A stretch of DNA of 64,000 nt from Escherichia phage RB69, in sequence record NC_004928.1; one strand, written 5' to 3'. Below the pieces are notes generated by a model that saw only the letters and a program-made list of their open reading frames with translations, ran no database searches and was not told where the DNA came from. Positions 1,204 to 63,396 of the stretch are shown here, one piece after another. The translations under genes and the position numbers were made by a program. Every line of letters begins with the position of its first letter. Position 1 is the first letter of the stretch.

Positions 1204-1688
1204 ATATACGCTTTCCAAGTTCCTGTTTTAAATGTTGAGATTACGCGTTTCGCGCGATTAGGTGTCTGACGATACCATTTAGATTGGGCTAGATTTACTG
1301 CCGCTTCGTCCCAACGTTTCTGTTGAAGCATACGAAGAGAATTAGTAAAACCGGCGACGCCTGATACACCCATTTGGAAGACCATATTGACCAATGCACA
1401 CCGACGAACTGCATCTAAAGAATCATATACCGGTTTAAGTTTAGCATTACCCAAGATTCCGCGAACGGCTTTATCAACGTCTTCATTAAATAGCTTTTCA
1501 GCCTCATCAAGGGTAATTGTACCGTTGCATTTACGGCCGATCATTCTGTCAAGTTCAGCTTTAGCTACGGCTAAAGACGGGTTCTTTGTTACTAAATGGC
1601 CTATGCCAATCGTCCAAAAGCCTTCAGTGTCTTTGTATAAAGTCAGTCTAAGACCTTCGTCATTACGAAGCATTTCAAATATATTCAT
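1200..1688 (-). CDS. e: lysozyme (endolysin)
   Basis: [32 protein letters not shown]... matches T4 lysozyme over its whole length; GGAGG 5 nt upstream of ATG at 1688. Confidence 0.96.
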
Positions 1689-1722
1689 AATACCTCCCAC
1701 GTTTATAGGAGGTATTTATTAC

Positions 1723-2181
1723 TTATAGGAGGGTAGTGAGCACCTTATATAATGATTTGCCCATTACATATTCCCATTGAGAAGGTTTAATTAAAGCGAA
1801 TGCATCAAATTCAGGAATCTGTCGTCCGTCTGGGAATGTATGATAGGAATTACAAACACTGTTTCTGAATTGCTCGTGCTCTACAGGGATGGTATATAGG
1901 AACAGATGAATATTCTTATTGTCTGAGTAATGATGTTCACCTAGGTCTTTCAGGAAGGCAGGGTCATATTGTGTAAACCCAGTTTCTTCTTCGCATTCAC
2001 GAATAGCGGCTTCAATAGGAGATTCGCCAGGTTCGACACGGCCTTTAGGAATATCCCACCGATGAGCTAATGCACCTTTAGGACGAGAACCAGTTACACG
2101 CCCCATGAATAATTCTTTATCTTCGGTAAGGAAAATAATACCGGCTGATAGTTCTTTCACTTTATTTTTCTTACTCATCAT
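1723..2181 (-). CDS. nudE: NUDIX hydrolase
   Basis: Nudix box GRVEPGESPIEAAIRECEEETGF; position downstream of e as T4 e.1/nudE. Confidence 0.85.
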   Translation of the reverse strand: MMSKKNKVKELSAGIIFLTEDKELFMGRVTGSRPKGALAHRWDIPKGRVEPGESPIEAAIRECEEETGFTQYDPAFLKDLGEHHYSDNKNIHLFLYTIPVEHEQFRNSVCNSYHTFPDGRQIPEFDAFALIKPSQWEYVMGKSLYKVLTTLL

Positions 2182-2422
2182 CTCGGTCCCATGATTTGGC
2201 CATTAATTCGGACATAAATTCTTCAATGCGCGTTTCTTTAGATGGACTTTCACTATTAGAGACCGCAAGTTTGTAATCTGCAATAGGACGGAACAAATCA
2301 AGGTCCATATCAAGGTCGTCTTTGATTTGTTCTTCAGGTACATCTGTATCATACGTATACAGATAACTATCAAGTGATTCTGATTTAACGTAAATTGCTA
2401 TACTCATCTCAAATTCCTGCAT
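2171..2422 (-). CDS. hypothetical acidic protein
   Basis: 83-aa ORF; its start codon lies inside the ECR codons of the upstream gene. Confidence 0.5.
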   Translation of the reverse strand: MQEFEMSIAIYVKSESLDSYLYTYDTDVPEEQIKDDLDMDLDLFRPIADYKLAVSNSESPSKETRIEEFMSELMAKSWDRDDE

Positions 2423-2901
2423 TCGGTAATAAAACGTTCAACTTCATTATTCTTGGCCTTTATCTTGTCTTTACGTTCCTGTAAACTACTTTTAACAAGA
2501 TTAATAATGATGCCTACAGTACCTCCACCAATAATACCACCAATAATACTTACAATAGTAGATGCTAATAAGATAGCGATAATATCTGGTACAGCAAAGG
2601 CACTTACTTTAGTACTAAAAAACCATACCGACGGTACAAATATAATCCATCCTGTTATCCATTGGCACTTATTGAAAAACTTTTCAAGCTCAGCTTGGGT
2701 TGTTCGTATTACTTCATCGATAGGTTGATATCCATTAATGTATCTGTTCACGATAATACCTGCTGGTTTGTCGATTTTAAATGCTTGACAATGGTGTTTC
2801 ACTAAGTAGGATGGACATCCTGTCCAATCTACTGAATAGTATGAAATACCTTCGTCGCCACCGTCCATGTTTGACCAGTGAATTTTCTGTATCATTACCA
2901 A
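2404..2901 (-). CDS. hypothetical membrane protein, C-terminal FIxECR motif
   Basis: 165 aa; hydrophobic segments WIIFVPSVWFF / IIAILLASTIVSIIGGIIGGG; ends ERFITECRNLR. Confidence 0.55.
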   Translation of the reverse strand: MVMIQKIHWSNMDGGDEGISYYSVDWTGCPSYLVKHHCQAFKIDKPAGIIVNRYINGYQPIDEVIRTTQAELEKFFNKCQWITGWIIFVPSVWFFSTKVSAFAVPDIIAILLASTIVSIIGGIIGGGTVGIIINLVKSSLQERKDKIKAKNNEVERFITECRNLR

Positions 2902-3581
2902 CCTTCCATAGGGAATTCCAGATAAACTTGAGCGTTGACACGAATTTCATTGGTAATCTTTTTAACTCGGTCCGTATTACGAGATACACGTCCGAACCAA
3001 CGCCATCCATTACTAATTGCACGAGAACCAGTGTGCCATGTTTGCCAATCAAACTGAAGAAGAGTACGGTCTGGAGCTTCCCATTTCTCTAGTTCGCCTT
3101 TTTCGATTTTTTCGAGGACTTCTTTGTGCCACTGGCGATAGATAAGTTCGCCATCAGGAATCTGACTGAACTCTGCAGTTCCTGTTGCAAAATGAGTAGG
3201 ACACACATCAGCGTTAACAAGACCAAGAATATGTTCAGACAAATAGCGAGGATTGTCATAGTCAGGTGGTCCTGCAGTAATAAAGTGTTGACCAACCGGA
3301 ATATCTGGGCGTGGTACATCGTCATGGTGATAACCTGGGATAGCAGGATACCAACCAGGCATCAGCATGTGGACTCGTGAATCAAATACTACATCCGAGT
3401 CTTTCCAATCGTCAGGGAGATTTTGGATAAAGCTACGAGTAATTGGACCGCCGTTATCAAAAGCAAAATTCAAATCGCAATTAAAGAACATAGGCTCGTT
3501 TTTAATCTGGTCGTTTTTAATCGCATGAGCAAAACCACCTACTGCACGAGCTTGACTATTAAACACTTTAGAACTATTCAT
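2895..3581 (-). CDS. hypothetical protein
   Basis: 228-aa ORF in the minus-strand early block; no motif recognised. Confidence 0.55.
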   Translation of the reverse strand: MNSSKVFNSQARAVGGFAHAIKNDQIKNEPMFFNCDLNFAFDNGGPITRSFIQNLPDDWKDSDVVFDSRVHMLMPGWYPAIPGYHHDDVPRPDIPVGQHFITAGPPDYDNPRYLSEHILGLVNADVCPTHFATGTAEFSQIPDGELIYRQWHKEVLEKIEKGELEKWEAPDRTLLQFDWQTWHTGSRAISNGWRWFGRVSRNTDRVKKITNEIRVNAQVYLEFPMEGW

Positions 3582-3582
3582 A

Positions 3583-3888
3583 TTATTTTCCTCGACATTC
3601 TTTAATGAAATTTTCTAGATTGGTAGATTCAATAGCTTTTTTACGAGCTTCTGCGTGTTCTTCTTCAGACAATTTACGTTTATAATTGACCCAGACATTA
3701 TGGTCGAAACTAGTCGTGGCATATAATAACAATGCTCCAACGAATAGCAAAAACGGCGATAAGAATACAAAACCAGGAACACCATCCATATCGTAAGCCT
3801 TTTGTAATACTGCAACAGAAAGGGCTGCGTAAAAAAGTGATGCAAATATTGTTAAAAGACCAATTCGGTTGGTTTCGCCTAATTTCAT
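3583..3888 (-). CDS. hypothetical membrane protein, C-terminal FIxECR motif
   Basis: 101 aa, two predicted TM helices, ends ENFIKECRGK; early promoter just upstream. Confidence 0.6.
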   Translation of the reverse strand: MKLGETNRIGLLTIFASLFYAALSVAVLQKAYDMDGVPGFVFLSPFLLFVGALLLYATTSFDHNVWVNYKRKLSEEEHAEARKKAIESTNLENFIKECRGK

Positions 3889-3915
3889 AATATTCTCCTC
3901 ATGTTTAATAGGACT

Positions 3916-3945
3916 ACTATAATATAGTCCTATAATTGTGTAAAC
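3916..3945 (-). promoter_or_regulatory. sigma70-type early promoter inside inverted repeat (GTTTAC ... TATAGT)
   Basis: Minus strand GTTTACACAATTATAGGACTATATTATAGT; flanked by ataggact / agtcctat inverted repeat. Confidence 0.6.
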
Positions 3946-3957
3946 AGTTTTGCGAAA

Positions 3958-5194: not shown

Positions 5195-5210
5195 TTAATT
5201 TGATAGGACT

Positions 5211-5240
5211 ACTATAACATAGCCCTATCTTGTTGTAAAC
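5211..5240 (-). promoter_or_regulatory. sigma70-type early promoter inside inverted repeat
   Basis: Minus strand GTTTAC(18)TATAGT within the tgataggactactataacatagccctatc element. Confidence 0.6.
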
Positions 5241-5244
5241 TGTT

Positions 5245-5442
5245 TTAGCAAGAATAACTAGATGATACCCAGCCTTGAACAGTAATACTATTATTTGATA
5301 ACGAGATTGCGTCCTGGAGATTCAGACCTGCGTTATCTTCAATCCATAATGTAACTTCTTCGCGTTCTTCTGTTGCAATTTGGAACAGGTTTTCCAGAGC
5401 AGCTACTGCCGTACGTACAGCACAATCTAATTCGCGAGACAT
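5245..5442 (-). CDS. small hypothetical protein, GWVxSSxxC C-terminal family
   Basis: 65 aa ending QGWVSSSYSC. Confidence 0.5.
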   Translation of the reverse strand: MSRELDCAVRTAVAALENLFQIATEEREEVTLWIEDNAGLNLQDAISLSNNSITVQGWVSSSYSC

Positions 5443-8282: not shown

Positions 8283-8310
8283 TTTGTATTCCTCGTGTTT
8301 TGATAGGACT

Positions 8311-8340
8311 ACTATAACATAAACTTACTTAGATGTAAAT
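8311..8340 (-). promoter_or_regulatory. sigma70-type early promoter inside inverted repeat
   Basis: Minus strand ATTTAC(18)TATAGT within ttgataggactactataacat element. Confidence 0.55.
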
Positions 8341-24885: not shown

Positions 24886-25882
24886 TTCAAGTGTTGTCTA
24901 TCGTTCGATAGTTACTTCAAAATTTAGAACTGAAAAAATGTTGAATTTCTACAATTCAATAGGTGATGGTGATAATAAAAACACCATCTTTATAACGTTT
25001 GGTCGGTCTGAACCATGGGCTGCTAATGAAAATGAGGTGGGCTTCGCCCCACCGTATCCAACAGACTCGGTTTTAGGTGTAACAGATATGTGGACTAACA
25101 TGATGGGTTTAGTTAAAGTTATCCCATCTATGTTAGACTCGGTTATTCCTAGACGTGACTGGGGAGATATTCGTTATCCGGACCCTTATACATTCAAAAT
25201 AAATGATATAGTCGTATGTAATACAGCCCCATATAATGCCACTGAAGTCGGAGCTGGATGGTTAGTATACCGTTGCGTAGATGTTCCTGATGTTGGGATG
25301 TGTTCTATTGAGTCTCTCGACAACAAAGAAGAATGTCTTAAATTAGGCGGTAAATGGACTCCATCTGTTAGGTCTTTAACCCCTCCTGAAGGCCGTGGAG
25401 ATGCTGAAGGGATTATCGAAGTTGGTGATGGATATATATGGGAGTATCTTTATGAGATTCCACCTGATGTGTCTATAAACCGATGTACTAATGAATATAT
25501 AGTCGTTCCATGGCCGGAAGAAGTTAAAGAAGACCCTGCTCGTTGGGGATATGAAAACAATCTAACCTGGCAACAAGATGATTTTGGCCTTGTGTATAGA
25601 GTTAAAGCAAACATAATTCGTTTTAAAGCCTATTTAGACTCAGTTTATTTCCCTAATGCAGCACTGCCTGGTAATAAAGGATTTAGACAAATTTCTATTA
25701 TCACAAACCCCTTGGAAGCTAAACTCCGTCCTAATGACCCTAATATAAAGGCTGAAAAGGATTATTATGACCCCAGAGATTTACAGCGTCATTCTGGTGA
25801 AATGATTTATATGGAAAACCGTCCACCTATTATTATGGCAATGGACCAAACCGAAGAGATCAATATTTTGTTTATGTTCTAA
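24878..25882 (+). CDS. 8: baseplate wedge protein gp8
   Basis: 334 aa, size and synteny as T4 gp8. Confidence 0.9.
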   Translation: MNDSSVVYRSIVTSKFRTEKMLNFYNSIGDGDNKNTIFITFGRSEPWAANENEVGFAPPYPTDSVLGVTDMWTNMMGLVKVIPSMLDSVIPRRDWGDIRYPDPYTFKINDIVVCNTAPYNATEVGAGWLVYRCVDVPDVGMCSIESLDNKEECLKLGGKWTPSVRSLTPPEGRGDAEGIIEVGDGYIWEYLYEIPPDVSINRCTNEYIVVPWPEEVKEDPARWGYENNLTWQQDDFGLVYRVKANIIRFKAYLDSVYFPNAALPGNKGFRQISIITNPLEAKLRPNDPNIKAEKDYYDPRDLQRHSGEMIYMENRPPIIMAMDQTEEINILFMF

Positions 25883-25886
25883 TTTA

Positions 25887-25908
25887 GGGAGACTTCGGTC
25901 TCCCTTTC
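25887..25908 (+). terminator. UUCG-tetraloop hairpin after gene 8
   Basis: GGGAGACTTCGGTCTCCC followed by TTTCGTG; weak T-tract so may act mainly as RNA-stability hairpin. Confidence 0.45.
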
Positions 25909-45209: not shown

Positions 45210-45233
45210 TCTTAATTGATTAAATCTTATTTT

Positions 45234-45263
45234 GGGAGACTTCGGTCTCCCATTTTTGGTTTT
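45234..45263 (+). terminator. rho-independent terminator after gene 23
   Basis: GGGAGACTTCGGTCTCCC followed by ATTTTTGGTTTT. Confidence 0.8.
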
Positions 45264-45290
45264 ATTTCTGCGCAATTTCGATGTAAGTTT

Positions 45291-45531
45291 TCAAAATATT
45301 TTGCCAATTAGGCATACCTTCTGAACATATGCCGGAGAACCGTCTTTATTTTTGAATGATGCAAGTTTATCAGTGGCCCAATAACCTTTAGTTCGAGCTT
45401 CAGAATCAACTTTCATCCATACTTTGTTGAAGGCATTACCATTAACTTTTGCACCATATTTTTGTACTTTCGGTTACAGATCCAGCTTCCAGAACTTTTA
45501 CAGTATCTCGTAAGAAACGTGCTTTAGTCAT
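45291..45531 (-). pseudogene. small minus-strand gene split by a frameshift between genes 23 and 24
   Basis: ATG at 45529-45531 with GAGGAG RBS; frame A gives 29 aa then stop; frame shifted at an A-run continues 58 aa to stop at 45291. Confidence 0.4.
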
Positions 45532-45561
45532 TTTGTTTACTCCTCTGCAGCTGATAAGTCG

Positions 45562-45591
45562 ATAGTATCACATACCAAATACGTTGTAAAC
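45562..45591 (-). promoter_or_regulatory. sigma70-type early promoter (GTTTAC ... ATACTA), duplicate of the 8.5 kb cassette
   Basis: Minus strand GTTTAC(18)ATACTA; downstream RBS-start sequence CAGAGGAGTAAACAAAATGACT is near-identical to 8491-8515. Confidence 0.5.
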
Positions 45592-45597
45592 AATCTT

Positions 45598-45605
45598 TAT
45601 AAATA
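45598..45605 (+). promoter_or_regulatory. late promoter TATAAATA
   Basis: Exact TATAAATA 28 nt upstream of gene 24 start. Confidence 0.7.
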
Positions 45606-45632
45606 ATCTATATCACATAAGGGAAAAATGCA

Positions 45633-46916
45633 ATGAGTAAAATCCAAAAATTATCGCGTGAATCTACAACGTCTACCAGCAACTCAATTGGTCGCCCAAA
45701 TCTCGTTGCTTTGACTCGCGCTACGACTAAATTAATATATTCTGACATCGTAGCAACACAAAGAACTAATCAACCTGTTGCTGCTTTTTATGGTATCAAA
45801 TATCTTAACCCAGATAACGAATTCACATTTAAAACTGGTGCTACTTATGCTGGCGAAGCTGGATATGTAGACCGAGAAAAAATTACTGAGCTCACAGAAG
45901 AATCAAAAGCCACACTAAATAAAGGCGATTTTTTCAAATATAATAATATCGTCTATAAAGTGTTAGAAGATACACCATTTGCAGATATTCAAGAAAGTGA
46001 TCTAGAATTAGCTCTTCAGATTGCAGTCGTTCATTTAAAGGTACGGTTGTTTTCAGATGCAGCGGTAACAAGCAAATTTGAAAGCTCTGGTAGCGAAATT
46101 TCTGATGCAAGATTCCAGATTAATAAATGGCAAACTTCAGTCAAATCTCGTAAACTTAAAACCGGCCTCACGGTTGAATTAGCGCAAGATTTGGAAGCGA
46201 ATGGATTTGATGCCCCTAACTTCTTAGAAGATTTGCTTGCAACTGAAATGGCTGATGAAATTAATAAAGATATTCTTCAGTCTTTAATTACTGTATCGAA
46301 ACGTTATAAAGTTACTGGAATTACTGACACCGGATTTATTGACTTGAGCTATGCATCCGCTCCAGAAGCAGGTCGTTCGTTATATCGAATGGTGTGTGAA
46401 ATGGTATCACACATTCAAAAAGAGTCAACTTATACTGCGACGTTTTGTGTAGCTTCAGCTCGTGCAGCTGCTATTCTTGCTGCTTCCGGTTGGTTAAAAC
46501 ATAAACCAGAAGATGATAAGTATCTTTCACAAAATGCTTACGGGTTCTTAGCTAATGGTTTACCGCTTTATTGCGATACTAACAGTCCATTAGATTATGT
46601 GATCGTTGGCGTAGTAGAAAATATCGGTGAAAAAGAAATTGTTGGATCAATTTTCTATGCTCCGTATACAGAAGGTCTCGACTTAGATGACCCGGAACAT
46701 GTTGGTGCATTTAAAGTTGTAGTTGATCCAGAAAGCTTGCAACCGTCTATTGGTTTATTGGTTAGATACGCTTTATCAGCAAATCCTTACACAGTAGCAA
46801 AAGACGAAAAAGAAGCGAGAATAATTGATGGCGGGGACATGGATAAAATGGCAGGACGTTCAGACTTGTCTGTTTTACTCGGTGTTAAATTGCCTAAAAT
46901 TATTATAGATGAATAA
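45633..46916 (+). CDS. 24: capsid vertex protein gp24
   Basis: 427 aa; synteny after gene 23. Confidence 0.92.
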   Translation: MSKIQKLSRESTTSTSNSIGRPNLVALTRATTKLIYSDIVATQRTNQPVAAFYGIKYLNPDNEFTFKTGATYAGEAGYVDREKITELTEESKATLNKGDFFKYNNIVYKVLEDTPFADIQESDLELALQIAVVHLKVRLFSDAAVTSKFESSGSEISDARFQINKWQTSVKSRKLKTGLTVELAQDLEANGFDAPNFLEDLLATEMADEINKDILQSLITVSKRYKVTGITDTGFIDLSYASAPEAGRSLYRMVCEMVSHIQKESTYTATFCVASARAAAILAASGWLKHKPEDDKYLSQNAYGFLANGLPLYCDTNSPLDYVIVGVVENIGEKEIVGSIFYAPYTEGLDLDDPEHVGAFKVVVDPESLQPSIGLLVRYALSANPYTVAKDEKEARIIDGGDMDKMAGRSDLSVLLGVKLPKIIIDE

Positions 46917-61281: not shown

Positions 61282-61309
61282 AGTATAACACATCCATGTG
61301 CTTGTAAAC
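61282..61309 (-). promoter_or_regulatory. sigma70-type early promoter
   Basis: Minus strand GTTTAC(16)TATACT. Confidence 0.5.
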
Positions 61310-63396
61310 TATCCTTGGACAAATTTAAACGGAACTGATTCTAAATCCATTAAAGATGCTAACAATTTCAAACCTTTAGGTGCGCTAGTTTTTTCTACAA
61401 ATGAAGAGAACGATACCGGCTCATCTGATTCGATTTCACCTGTCATAGCAACCACCTCACCTGTTTCCATGAGAACATCACCATCATAAATGACAGCTTC
61501 ATCTAACTGGTCTGAGGACATGACTTCAGCTTGAATAAATTTAAGGTTGGATTCTAAACCTGCACCAGTGTCAGATGACGCATCTGTAATTTTATTTATC
61601 TGCAAGAGAATGCCTCTAGGCAAAATAATTTCTTGCTCATTAGGGTGATTACTCAACTGTCCTGGATAAATCACGTTAACTTTATGAGCACCATCAATAG
61701 CCCATCCAACGTTAACACGGATTTGTTCTGGTGCATGCATAGCTGTTCTTACTTGACTAGGAGAAATAGTAACACCTTCGTCATTATTGTCAATGTTAAG
61801 CTCTTTGCGAACGTTCTTCAGGAGCAAGTCCAAGGGCAACGTTCTCTTTAAACCCACCGAAAATAATAGGAGCTTGTGAAGTGGAAACATAGTTTCTGAA
61901 GTAGAATACCTTATTTTTAACCATTGCTTCGTAAATAGGCATTCTGATAGACTGAGCTCTATATAACGTTTGTCCTTCAGGTAACGGTCTCCATTTAAAA
62001 ACGCCGAATCAAGACCATCAATAGCGCGTTTAACTTCATCTTCATCTGCAACATCGTAAAAATCTGGTTTATAACGACCTAACAACATATTATTGATATC
62101 GGTATACGCAGAAGAGGCATATTCACGAATAGCTCGTTTTTCAGCAACAGAGTATTGTTTAGGGTCCCGATTCATTGTTATATTAAAGGTGCCTCTAGCC
62201 GATTCTCGTGCATAAGTATACATCACATTAGACAAGAACGCTGATTTACGTTGTTTCCAAGTTTTTTCAGATACTTCAGCTAAAACGTCGTCGGCCAGTT
62301 GGAAATTATCACGTCTAAAATCTTCAAACCATTCGTCTTTAATAGAGTCTGCAATCTCATTTGCAGCTTCAACAAAAGCAGCTAATGCTTTAACAGATGT
62401 TGTTTTTTCAGTTTTAATTTTCTTAGCAAACTTTTCTAAAGTTGGCTTAATAACACCACCATAAGAAACTTCATCAGCAAATTTAAAGGATTCATCAATA
62501 CGATTATAAATCTTATTTTCGATATCAGCAACTAAAGTGCCTTTTGCTGTGGACGATGCTTGGGCTAGTACTATTTCATATGCTTCAGGAAGTAATTCGG
62601 CTGTAGCCGGGCCACTAACTTCTTTAGCAGAATTTTCGTATTTCTGGAATAACTCACCTTCTTGGCGGTCCGCTTCTAAAGATTGACTTGCTGCAATAGC
62701 ACGACGAGAAATTTTAGTACGAGCAATAACAGGCTTATCTTTACGTTTTTCTTCTACAGCAGCAATAGAACCAGCGATAGCCGTTTCTTTGGTGACCTTT
62801 TCGCCAGTCTTTTTACTCACATAAACTTCGCCAACATCAGAATCTACTTTCGTGTACAACTCTGTGTTAATGTTAGGGATGCCTTTAATATCTTCAATGT
62901 TGGCATTTTTACGAACCATCATCACATAGGTGTGTTTACCTGTGAATTGATACATTGCCGACAATACTTTAAAACGACCACCGGTTTTAGTAGAAACTAA
63001 ACGAGCAAGAAGAGTTTGAAGCTGCTGTCCACGTCCTTTCAATTTCTTGGTAGGGAATCGGAACAGAACTGCATCCATACGAAGAGCTTTAACCTGTTCA
63101 TATACTGTATTGAAAATGGTGTTGATTGCATCAATAGGAGCAGGACCAAGGCCATTTTTCAATTCAGCGAGATTACCCTTTTCAGATAGACTCATAATAA
63201 CAACATGAGCGTATTTGTCGCCAAGTTTAACTTGTTTTACAGCATCACCTTCGGAAAGGTAAGAGAATAAGCGAACTACGATGTTTGTATCGATATCACC
63301 AATTTTCCAGACTTGTGGAACTTTAGCTTTAGGGTTCAAATTGACGACAGGAAGACTGCCTTCAGATTCAAACACTTCATTTAATTGTTCAGACAT
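61309..63396 (-). CDS. alt: ADP-ribosyltransferase Alt (packaged, injected)
   Basis: 695 aa; N-terminus MSEQLNEVFESEGSLPVVNLNPKAKVPQ resembles T4 Alt; size and position after gene 54. Confidence 0.88.
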   Translation of the reverse strand: MSEQLNEVFESEGSLPVVNLNPKAKVPQVWKIGDIDTNIVVRLFSYLSEGDAVKQVKLGDKYAHVVIMSLSEKGNLAELKNGLGPAPIDAINTIFNTVYEQVKALRMDAVLFRFPTKKLKGRGQQLQTLLARLVSTKTGGRFKVLSAMYQFTGKHTYVMMVRKNANIEDIKGIPNINTELYTKVDSDVGEVYVSKKTGEKVTKETAIAGSIAAVEEKRKDKPVIARTKISRRAIAASQSLEADRQEGELFQKYENSAKEVSGPATAELLPEAYEIVLAQASSTAKGTLVADIENKIYNRIDESFKFADEVSYGGVIKPTLEKFAKKIKTEKTTSVKALAAFVEAANEIADSIKDEWFEDFRRDNFQLADDVLAEVSEKTWKQRKSAFLSNVMYTYARESARGTFNITMNRDPKQYSVAEKRAIREYASSAYTDINNMLLGRYKPDFYDVADEDEVKRAIDGLDSAFLNGDRYLKDKRYIELSLSECLFTKQWLKIRYSTSETMFPLHKLLLFSVGLKRTLPLDLLLKNVRKELNIDNNDEGVTISPSQVRTAMHAPEQIRVNVGWAIDGAHKVNVIYPGQLSNHPNEQEIILPRGILLQINKITDASSDTGAGLESNLKFIQAEVMSSDQLDEAVIYDGDVLMETGEVVAMTGEIESDEPVSFSSFVEKTSAPKGLKLLASLMDLESVPFKFVQG

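Follow-up and report, generated by a model that had tools for sequence, protein, structure and literature searches.

The junction between the essential capsid genes 23 and 24 of Escherichia phage RB69 contains an early-type promoter, a strong ribosome-binding site and two annotated small ORFs, RB69ORF188c and RB69ORF189c, and it raises the question of whether this stretch is a cassette recently inserted into the capsid gene block, as was originally predicted from the sequence, or a long-established occupant of that position. We examined it in a 64,000-nt window of the RB69 record NC_004928.1 (hereafter the window), in which gp24 (45633-46916), RB69ORF188c and RB69ORF189c are exact matches to the RB69 records NP_861880, NP_861878 and NP_861879, respectively. 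The terminator at window positions 45234-45251 is the published RB69 terminator 109234-109251, and RB69 coordinates are therefore window coordinates plus 64000. The phage collection that was searched did not include RB69 itself, and its nearest genomes were those of Mosigvirus, at ~97-98% identity; no independent RB69 record across the 23-24 junction was found in it, the single record of at least 99% identity covering part of gene 23 only.

The reading that we favor, with a probability of about 80%, is that the 23-24 stretch is a long-standing expression slot of the T-even phages whose small early gene is inactivated in RB69 as deposited, and that the sequence block at the start of this gene is a shared early-gene leader. 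The features of the RB69 junction are ordinary for T-even phages and have largely been published or annotated before. The sole addition made here is the recognition of RB69ORF188c and RB69ORF189c as parts of a single conserved gene, and our literature search found no paper that treats them as one.

One conserved gene, split by two indels in RB69

PhAPEC2 and APCEc01 each have a single annotated minus-strand ORF of 270 nt between genes 23 and 24, encoding a protein of 89 aa, and the disrupted RB69 orthologue, at 45262..45531 on the minus strand, has the same full length and position as these two genes (PhAPEC2_170 and APCEc01_119). The intact orthologue matches the profile of PHROG 6003, which is annotated as function unknown, with E = 2.1e-45 over positions 1-89 of 90. 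By tblastn the protein was found in 238 phage records, with 118 at ≥95% identity, one at 80-90%, and 119 at 30-38%, and the located members of this last group are JS98, W143, and MX01. A profile search of 1.8 billion representatives returned only eight proteins, namely small ones of 41-90 aa, RB69ORF188c among them, and one spurious match to a repeat protein. AlphaFold predicts with high confidence that the 89-aa protein consists of three helices and a beta hairpin; Pfam detected no endonuclease domain in it, and the prediction matched neither an endonuclease nor any other specific fold.

A single uninterrupted reading frame, as expected of a member of PHROG 6003, is lacking in the RB69 copy, which has a net +1, a -1, and stop codons between them. 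Its N-terminal fragment is RB69ORF189c, 29 codons at 45442..45531 on the minus strand with the ATG at 45531. A second frame on the same strand is open for 60 codons (45294..45473) and contains the middle fragment RB69ORF188c, 41 aa from the internal Met39 (45291..45416, minus strand); of the two open frames of 29 and 58 codons that had been reported initially, the first was thus correct and the second slightly short. Both fragments form singleton clusters. When aligned to PhAPEC2 and APCEc01, the RB69 gene has the same total length as its intact relatives, its two indels canceling each other. The first is the net gain of 1 nt within a divergent patch of ~9 substitutions at 45464..45482 (minus strand), and each of the 119 records that include the region departs from RB69 in the same way, with 80 nt against 81 nt in RB69 and ~87.7% identity over the patch. 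The second, ~150 nt downstream, is the loss of 1 nt at ~45322 (45321..45323, minus strand), where GTCCAAGAAGG in the relatives is GTTCAGAAGG in RB69, and it restores the ATG frame. The first ~20 and the last 19 codons consequently lie in the ATG frame and the intervening 50 codons are conserved in another frame, so that a reading in the ATG frame runs through multiple internal stops between the two shifts before it returns to EGMPNWQNILKTYIEIAQK and the terminal stop codon.

The original prediction had placed a single break at an A run. A frameshift is indeed present, but the run in question, A5 on the minus strand (T5 on the plus strand, 45459..45463), has the same length in RB69 as in the intact genes, with the break lying in the adjoining patch at 45464-45482, and the second break at ~45322 had been overlooked. 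Phage mogra and the 62-kb metagenome contig ERZ13616402, on the other hand, have A4 in place of the A5 run, and the gene there is divided into parts of 38 + 51 aa. That frameshift is independent of those in RB69, which brings the independent breaks of the gene to at least two.

Promoters, leader and terminator

The only promoter-like site that the promoter scan found in the region is a T4-type early promoter at 45555..45605 on the minus strand, in the orientation of the ORF, with the -10 hexamer TACTAT at 45562-45567, an upstream TG at 45569-45570, and the -35 hexamer TTTACA at 45585-45590 (TTTACA-17-TACTAT, 45590..45562, 9/12 matches). Transcription is predicted to start at ~45555, 24 nt before the ATG at 45531. 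This early promoter was previously predicted by Nolan et al. 2006 (PMC1524935) as Pe:109605 (= 45555-45605), with a score of 29.9, and as a sequence prediction it has the -35 element, the 17-nt spacer, the TG-extended -10 element of the form TAnnnT, the orientation, and the model score of a T4-type early promoter. In comparison with the T4 early promoters described in the same paper, it is alike in its GTTTAC-type -35 element, spacer, TG extension, and A/T-rich upstream region, and differs in having TACTAT instead of TATAAT as the -10 hexamer, which is no material difference.

The late promoter of gene 24, TATAAATA, is found at 45598..45605 on the plus strand, with 27 nt between it and the start codon of gene 24 (ATG at 45633), a suitable distance upstream of a late gene for a T4 late promoter. 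It lies 7 nt beyond the -35 hexamer of the early promoter, and the two promoters stand back to back. The overlap that had been proposed for them from the sequence alone is upheld, in that they abut and their published models, Pe:109605 and the late promoter Pl:109573 (= 45573-45615; Nolan et al. 2006, PMC1524935), share 33 nt.

The 3' boundary of the slot is the intrinsic terminator hairpin of gene 23, GGGAGAC-TTCG-GTCTCCC followed by a T run (45233..45252, plus strand), with folding z-scores of -4.2 on the plus strand and -4.5 on the minus strand; the RB69 terminator 109234-109251 was published as '23-><-RB69ORF188c' (Nolan et al. 2006, PMC1524935). On the minus strand no U run follows the hairpin, and termination of an early transcript there is therefore uncertain. 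Folding gave no significant RNA structure in the leader and coding start, and the search for RNA elements in Rfam gave only far-sub-threshold matches, on the terminator hairpin.

The gene 23 hairpin (GGGAGACTTCGGTCTCCC, 45225-45254) also recurs at 25878-25907, ~19 kb upstream, with 90% identity. It appears to be a reused terminator module, which also ends the gene in the 23-24 slot of distant phages.

The 23-24 slot across T-even phages

Across the T-even phages the slot contains this gene, segD, or nothing. All 119 of the Mosigvirus records found have the same gene, promoter, and terminator at the same place, with 95-100% protein identity except for the one record at 80-90%. Two metagenomic T4-like lineages have homologues of 61-71% identity at the 23-24 junction, where the homologues of JS98 (Dhakavirus) and W143 (Tequatrovirus) and, by coordinates, that of MX01 also lie. 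The order of gene 24 start, TATAAATA, -35, -10, Shine-Dalgarno sequence, gene, and GGGAGACCGAAGTCTCCC hairpin is kept in L003, L005, JS98, and W143, in all of which the homologous gene ends at the same hairpin. In T4, the slot is occupied by the homing endonuclease gene segD behind an equivalent promoter, and the architecture of late promoter, -35, -10, Shine-Dalgarno sequence, and hairpin is found around segD as well. The junction is empty in most Tequatrovirus, wV7 for example keeping only TATAAATA and the hairpin, and W143 combines a Tequatrovirus background with a JS98-type cassette. The late promoter TATAAATA of gene 24 is kept in L003, L005, JS98, T4, and wV7.

In the T4-like lineage L003 (metagenome contig ERZ27245996 k123_278436), two tandem gp24-like genes of the Gp23 family, at 1337-3901, adjoin the slot gene. 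The label '24a' given to the JS98 gene hints at the same gp24-like duplication.

A 47-nt leader block present in two copies

The start of the disrupted gene lies in a 47-nt block (copy B, 45525..45571, minus strand) that the repeat search found again at 8487..8533 on the same strand (copy A), where it precedes a 54-aa early gene (8329..8493) and coincides with the published promoter Pe:72567. Read on the minus strand, the block comprises the TG-extended -10 element TGATACTAT / GTGATACTAT, a leader of ~24 nt, GAGGAG (45540-45545 in copy B), 8 nt, and ATG ACT A. The two copies are identical at 44/47 positions and were the two matches in the window, with none expected in 100 shuffles. The near-identical 50-bp module of the original prediction is thus real, though over the limits first given for it (45529-45578 against 8491-8540) the agreement is ~42/50 by eye, with identity ending at 45571. 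The identity of the copies stops sharply at both ends and their flanks are unrelated; the flanks, including the -35 region, are specific to each locus, and those at the 23-24 site are common to distant lineages.

The PhAPEC2 copy at the junction is identical to RB69 copy A (47/47), and the two APCEc01 copies differ at one position, while RB69 copy B has three private substitutions. Two of these three create CAGCTGCAG at 45550-45558, in which PvuII and PstI sites overlap, probably by coincidence. In the listed Mosigvirus and Dhakavirus records each genome has related leaders at 2-9 places, and a related leader also precedes T4 denV. The 23-24 leader of JS98 matches the block at 35/44 positions, though the proteins are only ~34% identical, and Tequatrovirus records that match the full query have ~77% identity around the start of the 54-aa gene; block-like leaders at both loci therefore predate the split of the genera. 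Within Mosigvirus, we infer that the near-identity of the two copies would be best explained by gene conversion, although strong selection for a common leader would look similar.

At copy A the block bounds a difference in gene content. A segment with the 54-aa gene and a second early promoter (8312..8486, minus strand) is absent from PhAPEC2, in which the block directly precedes a frd.3-like gene, and the junctions of this indel lie in the microhomology between Shine-Dalgarno sequence and ATG (GAGGAG...AAAATG). The 54-aa gene, which has a D1-type promoter of its own, is present in RB69 and APCEc01, and its protein is also found in several Tequatrovirus and a Citrobacter phage.

Alternative explanations

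According to the original prediction, a cassette with a promoter-RBS-start module and a small gene was inserted recently between genes 23 and 24 in this phage. The stretch is accessory, as was stated, when all T4-like phages are considered, the junction being empty or holding segD or a member of this gene family; the JS98-type cassette in the Tequatrovirus background of W143 indicates that transfer of the whole slot happens, and the block is common to a distant locus. Recency is where the prediction fails, because the gene, with its promoter and terminator, is at the same site in every Mosigvirus record found and the gene is there in every lineage with a located homologue, the block has locus-specific flanks, -35 included, that distant lineages have in common at 23-24, and a target duplication, an integrase, and a homing endonuclease are all absent. 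A refutation of the prediction had been framed as two outcomes together, a single open frame on resequencing and conservation of the region in relatives, and the comparison of relatives at the 23-24 junction yielded the latter half. We consider a recent insertion extremely improbable; the slot gene in the RB69 lineage is an inherited resident. The least credible of all readings takes the GenBank annotation at its word and regards RB69ORF188c and RB69ORF189c as distinct small genes, both of them genuine. RB69ORF189c does have a strong ribosome-binding site, but no GAGG-type site is evident upstream of the RB69ORF188c start codon, both are singletons in a collection of ~15 billion proteins, and after correction of their frames the joined pieces can be aligned over the full length of the 89-aa protein conserved in the 238 phage records. 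A functional split, by programmed frameshifting or with the A run as a reversible on/off switch (contingency locus) of an early accessory gene, would fit the independent change from A5 to A4 at the same run in mogra and ERZ13616402, a 2025 preprint reporting that slippage-prone A runs are contingency loci in T2 and T4 (bioRxiv 10.1101/2025.10.21.683753), and the cancellation of the RB69 shifts that brings the last 19 codons back into the ATG frame. It is nevertheless very unlikely, as the run is of 5 nt where the repeats in the preprint are of at least 6, its length is unchanged in RB69 and neither RB69 indel lies in a run longer than 2, many stops interrupt the ATG frame between the shifts, and the leader and coding start have no significant RNA structure. 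Also very unlikely is the proposal that the slot gene is repeatedly silenced by one-base frameshifts since its product is sensed by host defense, the slot, with its conserved promoter and terminator and its homogenized leader, being a dock reserved for the exchange or silencing of early accessory cargo in T-even phages (this gene, segD, or nothing); the cases counted for it are RB69, the mogra-type phages through their A-run change, and a possible third allele from a metagenome.

A more serious alternative, to which we assign somewhat less than an even chance, is that the RB69 frameshifts are errors in the 2003 deposit, in which case the real RB69 would have an intact 89-aa gene and RB69ORF188c and RB69ORF189c would be annotation artifacts. 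The two indels are seen in one Sanger deposit of 2003 only and could be errors: both are unique to RB69 among 119 relatives, the RB69 allele of the patch has no independent copy in IMG/VR, the JGI metagenomes, or the GTDB genomes, the indels cancel to leave the locus exactly as long as the intact gene, and in 2003 there was no homologue to reveal a split. The same window has further RB69-only one-base indels outside homopolymer runs in nonessential genes, among them a -1 at 9624 that splits the PhAPEC2_133 orthologue and a +1/-1 pair in alt. On the other side, two modern Mosigvirus genomes differ by two frameshifting indels in 33 kb, and such changes thus occur without old sequencing, while the independent breaks in mogra and the metagenome contig mean that the gene is dispensable. 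The RB69 locus also has the three leader substitutions and the patch of nine, and since equally dense patches occur elsewhere in the window, including in the essential gene 23, the RB69 substitutions are probably real divergence. The base rate of frameshifts between RB69 and PhAPEC2 is about that between APCEc01 and PhAPEC2, similar rates that do not tell error and mutation apart. On balance, the odds lean slightly toward a genuine pseudogene over a deposit error.

Other interrupted frames in the window

The -1 in the interval 9400-9990 lies at ~9624, outside a homopolymer, where GAAGATCACGG in PhAPEC2 is GAAGACACGG in RB69, and it leaves the orthologue of PhAPEC2_133 (187 aa) divided between two frames, probably as RB69ORF148c and ORF149c. 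This looks like another interrupted gene found only in RB69. In alt (61309-63396, minus strand), the RB69 Alt ADP-ribosyltransferase differs from that of PhAPEC2 by a +1/-1 pair at 61813 and 61983, 170 nt apart, which puts ~57 residues out of frame and replaces the region of the LYR...YVSTS motif, and the ORF is still open over 695 aa. Only two substitutions lie between these indels, and they are exactly those that remove the stops of the shifted frame (TAA to AAA and TAG to AAG). The RB69 Alt sequence is an exact match to the deposited protein and a singleton. Four changes coordinated in this way would be unexpected both from random error and from natural evolution.

Proposed operation of the slot

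In the expression slot that we favor as an explanation, and judging from the sequence and established T4 biology, host RNA polymerase would start early in infection at ~45555 on the minus strand, from a sigma-70, T4-type early promoter that points leftward and would drive a short unstructured leader, a strong GAGGAG site, and the small gene, which would end at the terminator hairpin of gene 23. In the relatives of RB69, the early transcript would be predicted to yield the 89-aa protein. Later, gp55-directed polymerase would use TATAAATA and read gene 24 in the opposite direction, with this A/T-rich late promoter probably occupying the position of the upstream element of the early promoter. In RB69 as deposited, the net +1 near codon 20 and the -1 near codon 70 would inactivate the gene and leave only a 29-aa peptide and perhaps a 41-aa product of re-initiation, and we infer that function has been lost. 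The block itself is a promoter/RBS homology of the type where small genes are acquired, lost, and exchanged in T4-like phages.

For annotation, the consequence is that the RB69 entries for ORFs 188c and 189c should become a single gene marked as disrupted. The RB69 reference, which is still widely used, contains several frameshifts of uncertain authenticity in nonessential genes. The locus illustrates, cleanly and on a small scale, that the T-even phages vary the cargo of a promoter/terminator slot that stays fixed between essential capsid genes, and that short promoter-RBS homologies delimit gene gain and loss; neither point is new in kind, and the practical gain is small.

Comparison with known systems

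The PeSL cassettes of T4-type phages (Arbiol et al. 2010, PMC2839356; Comeau et al. 2014, PMC4122927) are resembled by the 47-nt block in that it belongs to a strong early promoter of sigma-70 type that runs up to the Shine-Dalgarno sequence and start codon of the downstream gene, and in that the breakpoints of gene gain or loss lie inside the block at copy A (RB69 8312-8486 against PhAPEC2). The presence of several related copies per genome may be a further likeness, with 2-9 places per genome in the relatives and, in the 64-kb window, the two near-identical copies and two more at 62-66% identity. At copy B, breakpoints of this type were not seen within Mosigvirus. The block differs from PeSL cassettes in lacking a stem-loop or terminator just upstream at both copies (for the 84 nt upstream, z = +0.92 and -0.24 against shuffles), the sole strong hairpin at the 23-24 locus being downstream of the gene, and in that the shared identity covers the part from the -10 element to the ATG only, with the -35 element and upstream sequence specific to the locus. 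A further difference is the arrangement of the two copies as direct repeats on either side of essential structural genes, at a distance of 37 kb, so that reciprocal exchange would be lethal and only conversion would be viable. The block resembles the 3' half of the PeSL cassettes and is PeSL-like in action rather than a PeSL, a name that we do not apply to it because neither copy has the stem-loop upstream that defines these cassettes.

Seven early promoter repeats of ~52 nt, at 134-185, 3900-3951, 5195-5246, 8295-8346, 12400-12451, 12753-12804, and 13128-13179, are 62-88% identical to the reference copy and coincide with published RB69 early promoters. By eye, each has an inverted repeat (GATAGGACTA...TAGTCCTATC) across the -10 region, and this family may be a better candidate for a true PeSL-like element than the 47-nt block is.

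The contingency loci of T2 and T4, for which the preprint (bioRxiv 10.1101/2025.10.21.683753) analyzed slippage-prone A runs with repeats of at least 6, and the interrupted genes of early Sanger sequences are like the slot gene in that one-base frameshifts split a dispensable gene, at an A run in the case of mogra. They differ from it in that the run is of only 5 nt in the slot gene and the RB69 indels are not in runs. T4 segD, which encodes a free-standing homing endonuclease of GIY-YIG type, is a cargo unrelated to the 89-aa protein, and the latter, having neither the endonuclease domain of the seg/mob type enzymes nor an endonuclease fold, implies no homing mechanism. What the two loci have in common is the setting of the cargo, which in both phages occupies the same slot in the same orientation, between an early promoter that abuts the late promoter of gene 24 and the hairpin of gene 23.
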